Source of the DNA: Octopus vulgaris
Lineage: Eukaryota
Length of the DNA stretch: 64,000 nt
Assembly: GCA_951406725.2 (NCBI GenBank)
Contig: OX597823.1
Coordinates: 11,656,001-11,720,000 of the forward strand
Direction: 5' to 3'
In this document: positions 8,942 to 53,998 of the stretch, one piece after another
How the letters are laid out: each line of letters opens with the position of its first letter
Numbering within the stretch: the first letter of the stretch is position 1
Notes under the pieces: generated by a model
Database searches by the model: none
The model's input: only the letters and a program-made list of their open reading frames with translations
Told to the model about the DNA's origin: nothing
Made by a program: the position numbers and the translations under genes

Positions 8942-9042
8942 CCCCAGGAACAGCTCCAAGGAATTTGCGTGGAAGAGCTGCTAGTGCAACCACCATATCT
9001 TTGGAATGGCAAGAACCCGAAATTCCGAATGGAATAATTGAG
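8942..9042 (+). CDS. Lar: LAR-family receptor tyrosine phosphatase, internal exon encoding the N-terminal part of FNIII repeat 2
   Basis: Acceptor ttttttcctttaaactttcAG, donor GAG|GTAAGC; 101 nt, phase 1 to 0. Translates (A)PGTAPRNLRGRAASATTISLEWQEPEIPNGIIE, matching recalled LAR/PTPRD FN2 '[34 protein letters not shown]'. Confidence 0.93.
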
Positions 9043-15770: not shown

Positions 15771-15972
15771 GGATATAAAATATTCTATACTTTGAATCCA
15801 GATCTCCCTATTATTCTTTGGGACCATAAAACCCACAACAATGGCCAGAATAAAGTGGAAACTCTTCTTAACTTGAAAACAAACAGCACATATACTATAA
15901 CCATTTTAGCTTTTTCTAGTGCTGGTGAAGGTCCTCTTTCAGAAGAAATTCAAGTAATGACAAATCCTGGAG
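15771..15972 (+). CDS. Lar: LAR-family RPTP exon encoding the C-terminal part of FNIII repeat 2
   Basis: Acceptor ttttttgcAG, donor GGAG|GTAATG; 202 nt, phase 0 to 1, in frame with the previous exon. GYKIFYTLNPDLPIILWDHKTHNNGQNKVETLLNLKTNSTYTITILAFSSAGEGPLSEEIQVMTNPG resembles PTPRD 'GYRVYYT...[28 protein letters not shown]'. Confidence 0.95.
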
Positions 15973-17149: not shown

Positions 17150-18385
17150 AATGTGTATATATATGAATGTGTATGTATACACTATTGCATGTGAAAATAA
17201 AACAAGGTTGCATTCTTTTCCTTTTCTTCTTTTCAATTAACCAAAAGCTTTGATCAAAAATTGTTTAAAGTTTTATTATTATCATTATTATTATTATTAT
17301 TTAAAATAAATCTCCAAATCAAAACGCCAGGTGTATTACTAAGCACAATTTGTTGATAAAAATCTTAGAATACAATTTTATTTTTAAAACATTAGTTTTT
17401 GAGATTTTCATAAGCCAATTTAGACATAATTTCATAATTGGTATCATCAGTATTACTTCTAAATTATTGTTAAGAGGCAAAAAAAAGTCTTCAGAAATTG
17501 TTTCAGCTTGACTACCAAGTGCAGTTCTACAAAGTAAATTGGTCAAGATTAGTCAGATAACTTTGGTCAACAGCTCCATTTAGTGCCATAAACAATGTGT
17601 CTCTGAAACCTGCATTACTATTATAACTACTACTACTTGTGTGTCCAACATTTGTATGTGCATATATATGTGTGTATACTTGTGTGTGTGTATGTGTTTC
17701 TTACTTTACAAAAAGGAAGATTTTTTTTTGTTGAAACTTTGTTAAAATTTAATTTAATTATTTTTTTCTTTTTTTACCTTGTTTTGCTTATATTTATTCA
17801 GATTCCAATACAATATGTATTTCAATACCAAATGGATTATTATAAATACACAATACTAATATCAGAGTATTGAATCTATCTTTCTTAACCACAGGGAACA
17901 AATTCGTGGAATTTAGTGCAATATTTCAGCTTTCATCATTGTGTTGTACCAGATTTTTCAATCCAATATTGTACAAAATATGGATTATATACATCAAATT
18001 TTACAATTTGCTGTACACCTTTCAACAGATTATATTATGATGTGTCTATGTGTGTGCCTGTGCATAAATGTAAGTGATTATATGTGTGTGTGTTTGTATG
18101 TGTATATGTAAAAAGTGCTGCATAGGGTTCAAGCATGTAGGATCAATTAAATTTTTATGTATGTATATAAGTGGATTAGAATATGAAAAAAAGCATAATT
18201 ACTAAACCCTTTATAATCATAATTGTGCAATGAATAATACCATATGTATTGTTTGAGGTAACACATTAATTATATTTGCTGTGTATGACTGGCATGGCTA
18301 GCTGCCTGATCATTATATTAGCTGATTCTTAGGGGATTTTCAAAGATATTTCAAAGTTGACAGTTGATATAAATTTTAACTTCTA

Positions 18386-18856
18386 CGAGGGGCATTCAAT
18401 AAGTAATGCCCCTGACCCACTTCCCATAGCAGTAGAGCAACGAAACTTGGCAGTTATTAGTCTTTTTCTACATAGGAACCACCCAGAGTTACGCATTTCT
18501 CCCATCGTTTGATGCAGCTCTGGAGACTGTTTTTGTAGAAGACCCCAGCTTGGTCCTCCAACCATGACGTGACTTCAGAAATCAAGGCTGCATCATCTGG
18601 GAAACGCTTTCCTTTCAAATACAATTTCATGGCTGGGAAGAGGTGAAAATCAGAGGGTGCAAAGTCAGGAGAGTAGGGGGTGGATGGGGGAGGAGTTCAT
18701 AGCTGCACACCTTTGCTTCTGATCTGGCGACACGCGAGTTGTGGACCGGAGCGTTGTCCTGCAGGAGGAGGATGCCTTTGCTGATCTTGCCTCGCCTCTT
18801 GATTTTGATAGCTTCTCTTAATTTCCTCAAAAGTGAAGCATAATAGTATCTATTTA
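18386..18856 (-). mobile_element. mariner transposon 3' fragment: transposase C-terminus plus one TIR
   Basis: Minus strand YYASLLRKLREAIKIKRRGKISKGILLLQDNAPVHNS...LPHPP, then after a frameshift YSPDFAPSDFHLFP..K..LKGKRF...RWEKCVTLGGSYVEK. Terminus TA|CGAGGGGCATTCAATAAGTAATGCCCC. Confidence 0.92.
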
Positions 18857-19695
18857 TGAGATGGAAGCCATTCTGTTTCCAAAAAGAACACAATCCCATT
18901 TCTGATTAGTCTTGCAATGGGGAATTTTGAAACTTAATGTCATGTTCTTTACTTCATCACATCGATTACTAGATGAAATCTAATAAAACTCTACTTGTAC
19001 ACAACTCAAGACCTGCTATTCCTTTAAAGCTTTTTAAGACTTCTGTCTTTAGTCCACAGCTAAACATTTGCTAATGTTAGCAATGCTTTGTATGCACATA
19101 TAGATTATCTTTACATTTTCTTTTTTTATTCTTTATTTGTCATACTACTTTTAGAAATATTTACCCATTAAGGATAGAAAGTCTCTCAATATGTTGCTTT
19201 TGACTAAATTAAACCTGTTGATGTTGCTTGAGGGTTGTCCATTTTAAGGTTAAGATGAATACCCTACTTCCTCCAAAGTAATTGCAAACGCAAAATATCT
19301 TTTATGCTGCTAAGAACAAACTTGGCTCTGGTTTCATAGCATTCAGTGGGTGAGTGATAATTTTTTTCCAAGACTTGACTTCAGCTTATTTCTGATCTGA
19401 TAAATATCCTTGACAACTGGCCTATGTCAGTTGAAGTGATGAAGAACAAAATGGTCTGCTTTGTAGCATCTATAAATAAAGAATAGTCCACAATTTTATC
19501 CATTCAGTCATGGTATGTCTTAGAATGTTTCTGATTAGTGTTTCAGTATTTAATCCGAGTTCTCCTGAGATTTTCCTTCATTACCTGATAATATCTAATA
19601 CTACATATATTGTTGGATCAGTCTATTTAAACTTCTATATGGGAGATGGAGGTCTGCTGTTTTTGGTTTTTGATATATATATATATATATATAAC

Positions 19696-23863: not shown

Positions 23864-23893
23864 TTCCAGTGAATAAACCTGTTATATTTGATC
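23864..23893 (+). CDS. Candidate 30-nt alternative microexon in the LAR FN2-FN3 linker (VPVNKPVIFD)
   Basis: More than 200 nt free of AG before tttcAG; perfect donor C|GTAAGT; 3n length, phase 1-1, no stop; TGC motifs upstream and TGCATG at 24003-24008. Confidence 0.65.
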
Positions 23894-24292
23894 GTAAGTA
23901 GTTCTGAAAAGTATGGCATTTATAATATTTATTATTATTATCATTATTAATAATATTACCATCATATAAACCTCCATGTCTTTATACAGTGCTCCTATAT
24001 GGTGCATGTTGCTGCATATTTTTTAAAATATTTTTAGTAGCCTGAAGTCCTGTAGATTGTGACTTTCAAATATCTTCTGACAGTCTTGAACTGGCCTTTG
24101 TTTTTTGCATCAGTTATTACTTGTATCAATTTTGTCTAGCGTACGTACATGTAAATTTTTGCGCTGCCGCTATATACTACTGCGAAGATGCCAGCATGCT
24201 TGCCCTTTGCTTTGATCTGCTGCCTGCTGCTGCTGCTGCTGCTGCCGACGCGTTGCACTGCGCGATCGTTACAAATCAGTTTCTTTCTGCAG

Positions 24293-24331
24293 CGATGGAT
24301 GGACTGAAGACCATACATCCTGATATTGCAC
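24293..24331 (+). CDS. Candidate 39-nt alternative exon (A/P-MDGLKTIHPDIA)
   Basis: tttctttctgcAG acceptor, AC|GTAATC donor, 3n length, phase 1-1, open frame; lies in a GC-rich island with a (CTG)n/YGCY cluster upstream. Confidence 0.4.
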
Positions 24332-28372: not shown

Positions 28373-28646
28373 GAGCTGCTTGTGATTCTTATTACTGATA
28401 TTTTTATACCTGCCAATTTATTAATGTTCAGCACACATGGAAATAGTTGAATATTTAGAAAATATCTTGGTATTTTCATCTTAGTCAATTAATCTGAATG
28501 TAAGGCTTGATTGGTAATTAATAAATGCGCGTGCGCAGCCTTTCTCTTTGCATATAATGTACCATTGATCGCTAATATTAACACCATATTTTTCCTATTC
28601 ATTATACTAATCTTCGTTTTTCCTTTTTCCATCCATTGTCCTGCAG

Positions 28647-28652
28647 AATCAG
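28647..28652 (+). CDS. Candidate 6-nt microexon AATCAG (adds E/Q-S)
   Basis: About 105 nt AG-free zone, branch-point-like TACTAAT (28605-28611), pyrimidine tract, ctgcAG acceptor, CAG|GTGAGG donor; frame-preserving in phase 1. Confidence 0.65.
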
Positions 28653-29469
28653 GTGAGGCCAATTACTAAACTTTCTAATTTCTTTTCAGCACATAATTTA
28701 TGTATATTTTTTTTTTTTTACCACTATCATTAATTATACATATGTATTTTTTTTTAAATTTTAAGCTAATCTGCAGAATAATGCATTAAGATTCTGCTAC
28801 TTGATGCAATATGATTGTAGCAGTAGTTATTTCGTCCTTTTTTCATTTTTTTTTGTATTCGTTCTTTTTCCTTTTTTTTTTTTCCTTCTTTTGTAATCAA
28901 AATAATTACCTATAGTTTTTGTTTTTTGTATTTTTTTTTTTGGTTTTTTGCGTATGTCCTTTACATGATTTTGAGGGGACATTCGTGAAAACACTCTGAA
29001 AGAGTGAGGTGTAGATTGTTATTTTCGTTTCGTGGCTTTGCATTCTCTGCCACTTGTTCCAATTTATGATGTGTGTGTCTTTTTTTGTAATATATTTGTT
29101 CTCTTGTTCTTTTACTAACATCTTAGTGTTAGGTCTAAAACTCTATTACTAACCCCCCTGCCCATCGATCGTGGCTAATTAAAACAATTACTGATAGTTT
29201 TAGAGCTTATGCTATAAGGTAAGTTCTACACAGCTACTCAACAACAATATCAAAGGCTTTCTCCAATTTCGGAAAAGTAAAACAATTTATCATCATTAGC
29301 TGCAAAATTGGTGAGTGATCTTTCAGGGAAAGATATATATATATTTTTCTCTCTTATTGATTTCAATATTCTGAATCTTTTTGGTTTTTTTCCTTATTGA
29401 TGTATTTACTCTATATGTATGATCAGTTGTGTGTGTGTGTGCATATGTATATATATGGATGGTTGACTA

Positions 29470-30148: not shown

Positions 30149-32145
30149 TTAATATGATTATTCCATTAATTTCATTTTCATTTTGCAACATGTTGCATTT
30201 ACATTTATTGGTCGTAGATAACTAAGTGTTCTACTATATTTCATTTTACACTTTAGCTCTCTCTCTCTTTCTTCCTCTTTCTCCCTCTCTCTGTCCACTC
30301 CTAATAAATATGACCTTACACAAATATATACATAGATATATGACATCCCTGTATGTTCTGAGTTCAATTGAAGCTGCAGTCAACTTTGTTCCCTTTCTGG
30401 TGGTGGTGGGGATCAGTAAAATAAAGTCGCTGGGCTAGATTTAATTTGGGCCTTTGAAGAAGCCTCAATTGGTGTTGCTCAGCTTGCTAGAAATAATAGC
30501 AAACAAACCTTCTTCACACTTAAAAAAGTACATGTTGGATAGTGTAGTTCTCTGTATATAAGAAAAAGATTGGGTGGTCATTGTTGGAATACTTTTGATC
30601 AGAGGTTTCCTCAAACAGATCTTTCTTGGGGCTAAACAACAGTAAAAATAGTGTCCTTGTGACTATTTTAGAATTCAGTTTTACATTTTTCTACATGAGT
30701 ATTGGATCGATAGAATCCTTAAGGTGTCATACAAATTACCTTGGCCTTATACAATCTAAGTTCAAATCCTGCCATGGTCAACTTTTCATTTTATCCTTCT
30801 AGAATTGATCAAACATATTTGTGAAATACTGAGATTAATCTAAATCAACCATCTACCTCCCAATGTAACATTGTTTGACATTGTACCTATGTCAGAATCC
30901 AGTATTATCTTATAGCTTTTTATGTGATGTCACTTTACATTTTGTGTTCAGATGCCTGTGTTTAGTGTTACTTTTCCTCCTTCCAGGGTTGATAAAATAG
31001 AGTGCTAGTCAATAAATAGGGTCAATTTTCACCGACTGTACCCTCAACAATTTGTGACATTGTGTCTTTAACAGAAATTAGTATTATGATTTTTCTGTAG
31101 TATTCATGATCATGATTTTCCCATCTGCTTTTCCGTGTAGGCTACATTGGATAGGTTATAATGAGATAGTGTTTTATGACTGGATACCCTTCTTGACACC
31201 AACCCTTTTCATTGCCTTGAATGAGTTCAGAAATGCAGTGTACATCTAATAATCGAAATTTTATTTTCTGCACTTTTAATATGATCTTCTTCTTTAGTTT
31301 TTGGAATATATGATGTTAACATTATATCATACATGCCTCATTAGGTATCATAATAAAAGTTATAGTTTTTAATCTGTTTTATACCACTTAATACTGACTG
31401 TGTAACCTTTTCTTTTAACTCAGTAACTGCAGTTCTTTGGAGTTACGTTTGTTGTAGCTACCTAATATATTAATAGTTTCGTTTTTGAGAAATGGTAGAG
31501 CTTGTGACACTAGATATGTTAAGCAGGTTTTTTTTTTTGTCCTATTGCAGTTTGTGGCTGAAATTCCCTTCTGTGTTGTTTCAGTTCTTGCTGGTCTTGG
31601 AACAGATTAGTGAGTAAAGAAGATTTTATTCAGAGGATAAACACAGACTAATATAATTTGTATGTATTTTCATAGTCACTGAAAGGTCTGATAAATATGT
31701 TTCAAGATAATAAAAACTGAGTATGGTTATAAAAGATACTATATTATGTGTGTATGTATATATAATTTATATCAAATTTATGTGTGTATGTATATATAAT
31801 TTATATCAAATTTATGTGTGTATGTTTATAAAATTTATATAATTTATCATGGACTACATTATCCAATGTGTCTCTTTTTTTTTTGAAAAACAGTTGGTAA
31901 GGAGTGTGTTGGTATTTAGTTTTAGATCTTGCTATTCTGACTTCAAATTCTGCCAGGGTCCTCTTTACTTTACATCCATCCAGGGTCAATGAAGCAAAGT
32001 AGTGGTGTTGATTTAATCAAATGACACTTGGTGTTTCCCTGGCCTTTTCAAGCAATAGACTGCAAATACAGGATCCTAAAAGTACAATCGTATTGCTGCA
32101 TGCACATTAACTACAGGTGACTGAATAAACCCAATGGCCATAGTA

Positions 32146-35105: not shown

Positions 35106-35502
35106 CACCTAGCCATCAAAATCATGCCAAAACAGACACAGTAGCCTGGTGCAGTCTTCTCCCTGGCCGGCTCTTGTTAAACCATCCAACCTATGCCACC
35201 ATGGAAGACAGATGTTTAATGATGAATGTATATATTTATACACATTTAGACAAGCAGTTTTAACACACAACATCAATGTATAAAGTTTTCTGCAAGCATT
35301 TGTGTTGTTATCAATGAGTACACTTTTAATCACAGGCATTCCATTTGTGATCATGTTTTTTTTTTTTTACCTTTAAACATACTGTGTCTATTACTTCATT
35401 TTCTAGCTTTTTTTTTTAAGGCTGTGATGTTTTGTTTGAGAGGTAGTTAGCTATTTATAACCACATAGAAGCTTACTTACTGGCTCATGAAGGGAATAGT
35501 TT

Positions 35503-35977
35503 CAGCATCTCGAAAGAGTCCAGAAGCTGGCTACCCGCATGGTTCATGGTCTCAAAAATTTGTCCTACAAAGAAAGGCTGAGGACGCTCAACCTTTATTC
35601 TCTTGAAAAACGCCGCCGCCGTGGTGATCTCATTCTCGCCCACAACATCATAAGCGGAAAGTGTAACCTCTCGAAAGAGCTGTTCTTCACTCCTGCTCCA
35701 GAGCGTCGGCTGCGGGGTCATTCCGAAAAGCTCTACCTGCGACGATTTCATCTCAATCGAAGGAGAGGAGCTTTCTCCGTCCAGGTTGCGGATCCGTGGA
35801 ACAAGCTGCCAGACGAGATGGTGAAGATGCCGACGACCGCTTTGTTCAAAGCCTCCCTGGACCTCAAGTGGCCTGAACTCTTTACATGAACACCACCCTG
35901 TACTTAACTCCATGTCCCCCTACATGGCCTTGCTATTTGCTTTTGAGCCAAATTAACTAACTAACTAACTAACTAAC
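35503..35977 (+). mobile_element. CR1-clade LINE 3' fragment: RT C-terminal region, 3' UTR and (TAAC)n tail
   Basis: LERVQKLATRMVHGLKNLSYKERLRTLNLYSLEKRRRRGDLI...RGHSEKL...FS..V...WNKLP is the typical CR1 ORF2 end; tail (TAAC)n at 35954-35977. Confidence 0.92.
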
Positions 35978-43750: not shown

Positions 43751-45302
43751 TCATACAATATTATTATAATGTTAGTAATGATGTTGATGATAATATGAAG
43801 ATGGTCTAAATACTCTTACTCAACACTACAACTATTCAAATATATCTACTGTATTTACTGAGTACAGGACTAAAATCTAACTGAGATGAGTGGTTAAGTT
43901 GAAGACTTTGGGCAGGTTTTAGTGAAAAAAGCTTATTAAGTGTTCTTTTGCAAATTTCTACAGTAATAATAATATGAGGGGAAATCCTTTAGTGTATAAA
44001 AATATTTAATGCAAATATAGGGGCTCTAGTCTGAGGATAACTTTCCCTCTTTTTCCCACTAATGTTGAGGTTACTGCATGAATGTCTTGGAATCTGCCTT
44101 TCTATGGCAGAAAAAGACATAAGGGAAAATAATGAACAAATAGAAGTTGATGAGTAAATAGTTTGTTGATCTCTATGTGGATAAAGTCAGTTCTGCTGCT
44201 GAATTATCTTGGTATAAAAACTATTATGAGGCAGACTTTGTAATTAACAAGTGAAATTCATCACTGAATATAGGAAAACTCACCACATCTCTTTAGGGAA
44301 CAGTTGATATGCATAAATGATTAAAATTGATAAGTGATGTCTTAATAATTAAGAAGAGTACATTAAATGTAGTTTCTTATTATATCAAGCTTTTACTTTT
44401 TTTTTCCTATTATCAAAGATGTCAAAGTTTTTTTTTATTCTTTTATATCTTTGAATATATATCTTTGTATTTATAGAAATACTGAATCTGGATATTTACA
44501 AGATAATTATCTTTTGACACTTTAAAAAGATAAACTTTCTGCGTTTATTAAAACTGTTTAGTAAAATTATGACATAATTTCGAGATTGAAATAAAAATTG
44601 AAAATAATAAACTTTTTTTTAGAAGTCTAGATATTTAGATAGACAACTTCTAGTATATTTATTTACATCTAGCTGCAGTTTCCTTTTTCTTCTCTCTCAT
44701 TTCTTTTTCCCTCACTTTTATCCTCTTCTTTTTTTTTTTCAACTTTCTCTCTTACATATACACAAACCCTTAGATAACTTGGCTTAATGTCTTTTGTTTC
44801 CTTTTAATATTTGGAGCATCTATCTAGCTTAGCTGAATGAAATAATTATAGTAATCCATATAAGATTTATTATGATTTAAATAATGATAGTATGATTTTT
44901 TTAGTTCCATTTGTGCTGTGTATAAACCTGTGTATAGACAGGGAAATAGTTTGGAATTATCTGATTCTTTGGTGTTCATCTTTGCTGTAAATGTTGATGA
45001 CTTGTGTGTGGATTAGCCACACATTCAGTTGCTGAACATTTAATATGTGACTACACTAAACAAGTATTGTCGACATTTTCTCTTGGTTGATAATCTTGAT
45101 TATTTAGCTTCTCAGCTGGCACCAAAGTTTAGTGTACTCTCGTCAATAGAAAGATGCTGTGGACTTGTGTAATTTCCCAATAATTCATAGTTATGTCATA
45201 ATATTTGTCTTTTCAACAGCAAAATCATTTTCTTTAAAAAATTTCAATTATCTAATCATTATTTTTATTTTTTATTTTTTTATTTTACATTCTTTGTTAT
45301 AG

Positions 45303-45587
45303 TCCCCCAACAGCCGAAAAATCTCCAGGCTCTTGCAGAGTCTGCAAATACTGTACATGTGACTTGGGATCGACCAGATGCAATGGATAATATCGAGAGC
45401 TACGAGCTATATTATAACGATTCCCACTACCGCCAGAATGTTCACATAAGTATTAAACCGCCTGTAGTAAGTTACCGTTTAGTTGATCTTACACCCGATA
45501 CAGTATACCACGTTCAAGTATCAGCAAAATCCTTACGTGGAGAAGGAGCACGTACCCCAACAATTCAAGTTAGAACACCTCAGTTCG
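45303..45587 (+). CDS. Lar: LAR-family RPTP exon encoding FNIII repeat 3
   Basis: T-rich tract then tctttgttatAG; donor TTCG|GTAAGT; 285 nt, phase 1-1. VPQQPKNLQALAESANTVHVTWDRPDAMDNIESYELYYNDSHYRQNVHISIKPPVVSYRLVDLTPDTVYHVQVSAKSLRGEGARTPTIQVRTPQF has the FNIII W/Y/L-P/Y pattern and LAR FN3 similarity. Confidence 0.95.
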
Positions 45588-47190
45588 GTAAGTTGCTTTC
45601 CATTTTCTTTATTCAAAATATTCAAAGACTGCTATTTTATGTATTTCTGTTAAAATTTTCCATTTCCTTCTCAGGTGTCTCGAAGATTATCATTGAATCT
45701 CTTTGCTTTTCAGGGTTAATTTGCTGTATAAAACAAACACCATTCCTGATAAACACATATAATCTATTTTGTTTTGCTTTTATTTCAGTTCGTTAACTAA
45801 TGTCTCTCTACAGGTATTTGGTGATGGGGGTGGGAGAGATTTCCATTTTTTTTTTTTTGTTCCACCAAGTGCTCTCAGCTATTTCAAAAGAGAAAGAAAG
45901 AAAAATGCTATATTTTGTTTTGTTTTTTTTTGGAACAAAATATGGAGATATTGGATCATCCTTGTATTGTATTTGCAATTATAAATGTATTAATAAGCAG
46001 AGGAAAAAAAAAAATTTGAAAAAAGAAAACAAAAAAGAAAAACAGATCAAATTTAAAACGTTTGAATGGTATTTATTTGGTAGAAATTAGGAATTAAATC
46101 ATGTTCAAATTATAAAGAATATCAAACTAAATATAAAGAATAATACTTAAAGCTTAGAATAACTCTTATGAACATGGCTTGAAGAAAGAAAAGGCTTTCC
46201 TTGGAAAATCTTAGAATTATAGGAGGCTTTTAGGGTAGATATATAATTTATTTAAATAAATAGGGTTCTCAGTGTAATGAGAACTGAACTAAATGTTTGC
46301 CCCAAAGTGTTTAACTGAAAGTATAGGTAATGAATTATTGATGTGTTTTGAAGGTATCTCATCTCATTAAGCCAGATTGACTAATTACTACCAGAACTGT
46401 TAATAAATTTAAGAACTGATTTTTAAAAAAAATTGAATTATGTTTTCAAACCATACAGTTTGATTACTTGATGATATAGTCTCAGGGTAATAAAAGTGGT
46501 TTATTTTATTTATTTATTTTTTACAAATACATTAATTTAATCAGATTGGTTATTTAAATATATATTATAATAATAATAATGTTCAAATCAGTTGTTTTAC
46601 TCTTTTTTTGCCCTTGAATTTAAATACATATATTAAGATAATTTTGGCAAAAGTATGCCGTTTTCTATTATTCCAATTGGCTCTCTTTCGCCGTGGACTC
46701 AACTTAATACACACACACAAGAGAGAAATGAAATTATAATGCAAATGCCATATTGTCACATCCATTTCTTTGACCCTGACCTTCCAAACCAGTTGGTAAA
46801 TTTCAATATCAACTGTAATCCTCATTATCCGTCTTCTAAAAGACCGAATAAAGCAATGCTTCTGTTTCATTAAATAGAAGCTTCTGTAAATTTTTTTTTT
46901 TTCCATCTCCAGAAATTCAGGGTCCATACCCCCTTTTGCACCTTCTGCTTTCATTCTCCATCATATACCCTTTTTATTTATCTTATTTTTTTTTTGGTGC
47001 TCTTTGTTATTATTATTACCACCACTATACCGCCCATCACTATTATCATTTCTCAACCTCTGTATTTAGGTAGTTTTTCTATATTTATCCTACTGCCTTT
47101 TATTTTATTTTATTTTATTTATCTTCACTTATTATTAGCTACAGTAGTAGAAGTAGTATCGTTATTATTTTACTCTTATTTTGCAAATAT

Positions 47191-53689: not shown

Positions 53690-53998
53690 CCCCAGGTGCC
53701 CCTCCTTTGGCTGTGAGTGGTATTGCACTTGACTCACGCAGACTCAACATTACCTGGAAGCCACCACCCCGCACCAAGCAAAACGGTGACATCACTGGCT
53801 ATAAGATAATGTATGTTGAAAATGATGGTGTTAAAACCAAAAATGATGCCTTAGTAGTTAATGTGGATGCAGATGTGAACTCTTATATATTGACTGACCT
53901 GTCAAAATGGACCCAATATAAGATATGGCTTCTAGCTTACACCAGCATTGGCGAGAGTCCTTCATCCCAACCCATCTTAGTGAGCACTGAAGAAGATG
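53690..53998 (+). CDS. Lar: LAR-family RPTP exon encoding FNIII repeat 4
   Basis: Acceptor cccttatcccctcAG, donor GATG|GTAGGT; 309 nt, phase 1-1. APGAPPLAVSGIALDSRRLNITWKPPPRTKQNGDITGYKIMY...LTDLSKWTQYKIWLLAYTSIGESPSSQPILVSTEED carries the LAR FN4 'L.KWT.Y.I...A.T..G' and 'T.ED' motifs. Confidence 0.95.

Follow-up and report, generated by a model that had tools for sequence, protein, structure and literature searches.

A six-nucleotide cassette microexon in the FN2-FN3 linker of the octopus LAR receptor phosphatase, a possible length spacer

The 6-nt sequence AATCAG at positions 28647..28652 of the plus strand of a 64,000-nucleotide stretch of Octopus vulgaris DNA (contig OX597823.1 of assembly GCA_951406725.2, positions 11,656,001 to 11,720,000; hereafter the window, to which all coordinates refer) is bounded by canonical AG and GT ends within a LAR receptor phosphatase gene, and is very probably a real exon. 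In our preferred reading, to which we assign a probability of about 60%, AATCAG is a frame-preserving cassette microexon that likely serves as a length spacer at the predicted bend of LAR, possibly in neurons. This reading starts from the observed site and its frame, the four junction forms present in gene models, the position of the exon with respect to the protein domains, and the inserts that occupy the same linker in other molluscs.

The host gene encodes a type IIa (LAR) receptor phosphatase with an ectodomain of Ig and FN3-type domains and tandem phosphatase domains nearest to those of PTPRS, PTPRF and PTPRD. Five full-size exons of this gene, all on the plus strand, lie in the window. 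The exon for the first part of FN2 (8942..9042) was identified by tblastn and by exact translation match to Octopus LAR models, with the splice sites read, and that for the second part (15771..15972) ends with NPG plus one base (phase 1) and forms the upstream anchor of the cassettes. The downstream anchor is the exon starting with VPQQP (45303..45587), for which the best alignment is to FN3 of human LAR (6TPW), PTP-sigma (4PBX) and PTP-delta (4YH7). Therefore, the intron at 15973-45302 is a phase-1 intron that interrupts the FN2-FN3 linker. Farther downstream are the exons for FN4 (53690..53998) and FN5 (from 63703 to at least about 63998, at the window edge). One Octopus model set shows no differences from the window in any tested exon that it carries, and two O. 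bimaculoides models differ from the window by one residue in FN4, a weak hint that the window comes from a different Octopus species.

Several other variable features of the ectodomain were recorded. FN4 alone, or FN4 and FN5 jointly, are skipped in some models, recalling the skipping of FN4-7 in vertebrate PTP-sigma. Upstream of the first window exon at 8942, at the Ig3-FN junction (models P0003, P0024, P0029, P0032, P0005 and P0007-P0009), Ig3 joins FN2 directly, without FN1, in the examined Ig-bearing cephalopod models, and a five-residue insert, QRNKT, is either present or absent at the octopus Ig3-FN2 junction. In octopus, FN1 was found only in models having another start, and several gastropod and oyster LAR models are likewise without it. 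In vertebrates, FN1-FN2 is a ligand-binding region.

The sequence ctgcAG-AATCAG-GTGAGG, with the donor GTGAGG at 28653..28658 read directly, is preceded by an AG-free stretch of 106 nt (28539..28644), which contains a CUAAY-type branch-point-like motif, TACTAAT (28605..28611), followed by a pyrimidine tract and the acceptor tgcAG (28612..28646). The predicted branch A at 28610 is 37 nt 5' of the exon, copies of CTAAT occur at -40 and -75, and pyrimidines make up 83% of the 29 nt preceding the acceptor. The sequence upstream of the exon, whose flanks were described as textbook in the first-pass annotation of this DNA, was thereby confirmed. The same annotation pointed to ACTAA and TGCAT motifs downstream of the exon, and these did not stand as regulatory consensus matches: the letters read ACTAAA and TGCATT, and the QKI and Rbfox consensuses are ACTAAY and TGCATG, respectively. 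At 6 nt, the exon is within the 3-27 nt size range of microexons. It is in phase 1 on both flanks, so that its inclusion preserves the frame and yields E-S-V or Q-S-V.

To place these flanks in context, we compared them with the rest of the window. The AG-free stretch at AATCAG is longer than those at the five full-size exons (106 nt versus 23-81 nt), but is by itself insufficiently rare, because 29 of the 3278 AG-to-AG gaps in the window span at least 106 nt. A combined filter (AG-free stretch of at least 60 nt, CTAAY, pyrimidine fraction of at least 0.75 and exon length divisible by 3) was passed by a single plus-strand YAG-(3-51 nt)-GTRAG site out of 109, that of AATCAG, by none of 152 sites on the minus strand of the window, and by a site in 1 of 100 dinucleotide shuffles, although the significance of these figures is overstated, because the thresholds were chosen after the site was known.

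The FN2-FN3 intron contains a second optional exon, an AG/GT-bounded 30-nt cassette (23864..23893, plus strand) found in isoform models, which encodes VPVNKPVIFD and constitutes the first optional unit of the linker, 4.8 kb 5' of AATCAG. Octopus models display four junction forms, NPG-V, NPG-ES-V, NPG-VPVNKPVIFD-L and NPG-VPVNKPVIFD-QS-V, that is, four linker lengths (+0, +2, +10 and +12 residues) with AATCAG and the 30-nt cassette, and each of the four is represented among the models that are identical to the window in the exons compared. The E-S form is represented by model P0023 and the Q-S form by P0003, P0022, P0026-P0028 and P0004 (the latter being XP_014773614.1 from Octopus bimaculoides). 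Between the 30-nt cassette and the FN3 exon, there are 19 candidate six-mers encoding the insert, of which only that at 28647 is flanked by AG on its 5' side and by GT on its 3' side. Use of an alternative donor or acceptor as the source of the insert was rejected, since neither the six bases that follow the FN2 exon nor the six that precede the FN3 exon encode these two residues. Thus, the first-pass prediction that AATCAG would insert either E-S or Q-S, according to the exon preceding it, was borne out, because all four forms exist in the models and 28647 is the sole AG/GT-bounded candidate.

A search of annotated octopus LAR isoforms for a two-residue insertion, which had been suggested together with this prediction, recovered the insert in 7 of the 16 Octopus proteins among the models listed (drawn from 15 of the 27 main-cluster members, one of these from Argonauta, and from two singleton clusters). 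Six of the eight proteins in the model set that matches the window exons carry the insert, as does XP_014773614.1. The insert was found in none of the six models listed from the other O. bimaculoides annotation, in neither the single model of a third Octopus contig nor the single Argonauta model, and in none of the five junction-spanning proteins of a cephalopod-like cluster. The Octopus gene models are automatic, and conservation across species was judged on protein models. The further claim that gene predictors miss exons this small fails, because the NCBI isoform models (for example, XP_014773614.1), automatic as they are, already contain AATCAG and encode both E-S and Q-S, although it appears in none of the six models listed from the other O. 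bimaculoides annotation.

We also considered 22 listed runs, all available as assembled contigs and none recorded as RNA. The FN3 exon is represented in 19 of the 22, and 4 of these 19 were compared over 45200-45700. The contigs are spliced in all four runs: the loose end of a contig from run X5 matches the first letters of the FN4 exon, located 8 kb farther 3', and runs X3, X6 and X8 each have contigs of 368 and 59 letters, fitting inclusion and skipping of FN4. In each of the four runs, a single contig reaches into the FN3 exon from the 5' side, with 303 letters upstream of the exon in X8 and 307 in X3, whereas the expected number is 303 when both cassettes are skipped (counting the two FN2 exons) and 309 when the microexon is included. 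Judging from letter counts rather than junction letters, the X8 contig probably represents the skip form and the X3 contig the skip form with four shared letters. The skip form therefore appears to be present, and is probably dominant, in those samples. An inclusion contig was not seen among the contigs of the four runs, of which X5 and X6 are uninformative; because contigs drop rare variants, this does not count as evidence that inclusion is absent.

The missing inclusion contig, together with the insert-free 6 of 6 models listed in one O. bimaculoides annotation, would suit an annotation artefact, in which an aligner took six bases of misassembled or faulty transcripts and placed them on a splice-like site that occurs by chance. 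We regard such an artefact as very unlikely, given that the insert occurs with two different upstream exons and in the annotations of two species, and that it coincides with the sole canonical site in the intron, of a kind produced by 1 of 100 shuffles.

With roughly even odds, we propose that AATCAG would be recognized through its remote branch point, its pyrimidine tract and the GTGAG donor, with the help of an enhancer restricted to certain tissues, for which the neural eMIC form of Srrm234 is the likeliest candidate. Similar to the neural microexons controlled by eMIC/SRRM3/4 across bilaterians, AATCAG is very short and frame-preserving, and has a long AG-exclusion zone, a CUAAY motif and a GTRAG donor. 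It differs from these targets in that neither a free UGC nor a UCUC run occurs close to the acceptor: no UGC was found between the branch point and the acceptor beyond the one within TGCAG, so that UGC is present at -5 (in the acceptor) and -98, and TCTC at -104 only. These differences are relevant to a second possibility, namely, that a real cassette is governed by a non-neural programme rather than by eMIC, for example in muscle, with QKI/How acting via the ACTAAY that overlaps the branch point. Indeed, the branch-point motif itself fits ACTAAY, a free UGC is absent, and Drosophila Lar is active in muscle too, as reported in PMC9140312. We nevertheless consider a non-neural programme improbable, because, in flies, the combination of a long AG-free zone with CUAAY is reported to be largely confined to eMIC targets. 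Fly eMIC targets have UCUC tracts and a UGC close to the acceptor in addition to long AG-exclusion zones and CUAAY branch points (PMC8797185). UGC is reported for 74-79% of SRRM3/4 targets and is not strictly required (bioRxiv 2024.09.17.613571).

Additional features of the same intron are noted here for completeness. The 30-nt cassette has an AG-free stretch of 243 nt, partly composed of simple repeat, four UGC in the 84 nt preceding it and a TCTC at -19, but no CTAAY; by its UGC and TCTC motifs, it is more eMIC-like than the 6-nt exon. A CAG located six bases into this cassette could yield a 24-nt form, although none is found among the models listed. Just 3' of the cassette, at 24046-24310, is a GC-richer patch with a CTG run and a TGCATG-like neighbourhood, possibly regulatory. 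A possible 3-nt exon, TTG, at 31894-31896 (aaacAG, GTAAGG) is associated with an AG-free stretch of 156 nt that is largely a 34-nt tandem repeat and contains no CTAAY, and the extra residue that it would add is present in none of the isoform models listed. Two ACTAAC motifs occur in the region 29100-29230, together with a strong GTAAGT donor near 29220 that lies 570 nt 3' of the microexon; a poison exon is conceivable at this location, because the bases before the donor form an in-frame stop in the LAR phase. The open frames at 18333-18905 and 35485-35919, judging from the look of their translations, may be fragments resembling a mariner-type transposase and a LINE reverse transcriptase.

The best-known relatives of the octopus exon are the mini-exons meA-meD of PTPRF, PTPRS and PTPRD, which, as described, belong to the same family, are ectodomain exons of less than 30 nt and preserve the frame. 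Moreover, meA3 and meA6 are tandem combinable units, like the two octopus cassettes, and meB is an interdomain spacer. The difference is in position: meA is located in Ig2, meB between Ig2 and Ig3, meC in FN5 and meD near D1 (PMC8711739), whereas the octopus exon is in the FN2-FN3 linker. Identity of AATCAG with any of meA-meD was therefore rejected, as its junction maps to FN2-FN3. A newer mouse microexon precedes the membrane, and a supplement shows a further eight Ptprd exons that are uncharacterised (PMC10883964).

In PTP-delta, FN3 stands at a right angle to FN1-FN2, an arrangement shared with PTP-sigma, and a kink of the FN2-FN3 junction in synapses was inferred by the authors (PMC4423211). 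The same report describes meB as a spacer that tolerates sequence replacement, with GSSG in its place hardly altering affinity, and the FN2-3 linker is characterized elsewhere as a possible flexion point with no substantial interface (PMC4239663). By analogy, AATCAG would work like a LAR-RPTP spacer mini-exon such as meB, without being one of meA-meD. In this mechanism, which we judge about evenly balanced, the insert would change how the FN2-FN3 kink is angled or how freely it moves, instead of forming a binding site, much as the PTP-delta meB spacer acts in a length-dependent manner. The two residues would extend the kink either by themselves or in addition to the ten-residue cassette, and the changed kink could, in turn, alter the reach or clustering of the receptor at cell contacts. 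It may also be that two more residues make little difference to a linker that is already flexible. We found no account of the AATCAG exon or of molluscan FN2-FN3 inserts in the open-access literature, although octopus tables, VastDB-type catalogues and supplements may list the exon; the main text of one octopus study (bioRxiv 2026.09.05.749416) makes no mention of Lar.

To assess the generality of the linker inserts, we compared LAR models across lophotrochozoans and beyond. FN2-FN3 linker inserts were identified in 10 of 27 lophotrochozoan genera among the models listed, with skip forms as well in 9 of the 10, and many of the 17 genera without an insert are represented by single models. The exon boundaries in the non-octopus lophotrochozoans are inferred from proteins only. 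Haliotis has APIFD alone, AGLP or VGPT alone, both, or neither, and therefore follows the two-cassette, four-form pattern of octopus. Biomphalaria has a 20-residue insert with KFPQPIFD at its end, and Magallana has inserts of 4, 8, 30 and 33 residues, with KFPGPITD within the long ones. Shorter inserts are found in Pomacea (AGFQ or GFQ), Babylonia (AGYQ), Gigantopelta (AGPP) and Ostrea (INFE), the chiton Liolophura has two inserts of 6 and 7 residues, and the nemertean Lineus has 13 residues in all 8 of its models. The P-I/V-F/T-D ending of the upstream unit is common to octopus, abalone, snail and oyster, suggesting one upstream cassette for cephalopods, gastropods and bivalves. In contrast, the peptides of the second slot vary by lineage (ES/QS, AGFQ, AGPP, VGPT, NQL), such that the place is kept but not the sequence, which fits the expectation for a spacer. 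In a third search, with 120 of 1081 matches listed, 227 proteins were examined and 16 without an anchor were set aside; none of the 211 proteins with both anchors (210 from arthropods, vertebrates or other relatives and one from the bivalve Solemya) has a linker insert, in a sample biased by an insert-free query and including no Drosophila or vertebrate PTPRD entry among the matches listed.

The variation of the second slot, in length as well as in sequence, among mollusc groups is also what would be seen if the microexon were real and spliced but nearly neutral, a by-product of a flexible linker and its insertion-tolerant phase-1 intron, in which the two residues have no effect that was selected for. 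The absence of the insert from the Argonauta model and the cephalopod-like cluster, the vertebrate structures without a substantial FN2-FN3 interface (PMC4239663) and the contigs of 2 of the 4 runs, which fit skipping, all agree with near-neutrality. However, the Q-S insert is identical in models of two Octopus species, the slot has been filled repeatedly across molluscs compared with 0 of 210 arthropod, vertebrate or other relatives, and the flank architecture is unusual within the window. We thus consider a nearly neutral exon a minority possibility, albeit the most serious of those weighed here, and favour AATCAG as a length spacer.

In mammals, the microexons of LAR-type receptors set synaptic partner choice. 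To our knowledge, the well-studied microexons of these receptors are all located elsewhere in the protein than the FN2-FN3 kink. The surprise is limited, because the octopus exon is ordinary in kind and is already present in automatic annotation; of more interest than the exon itself is its setting, a slot for two microexon cassettes at the FN2-FN3 kink, which is seen again across molluscs. Tentatively, and as an idea that we hold to be possible rather than probable, molluscs and perhaps other lophotrochozoans may have their own LAR splice code at this kink, separate from vertebrate meA/meB, in which a neurally regulated two-cassette module, combining the P-I/V-F/T-D unit of cephalopods, gastropods and bivalves with a tiny second spacer (6 nt in octopus), would determine how the receptor bends within the synaptic cleft. 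If true, this would represent a clean case of one gene independently gaining a microexon code in molluscs, and a regulated FN2-FN3 spacer would offer a direct test of whether the bend, rather than the binding surface, tunes a LAR receptor.
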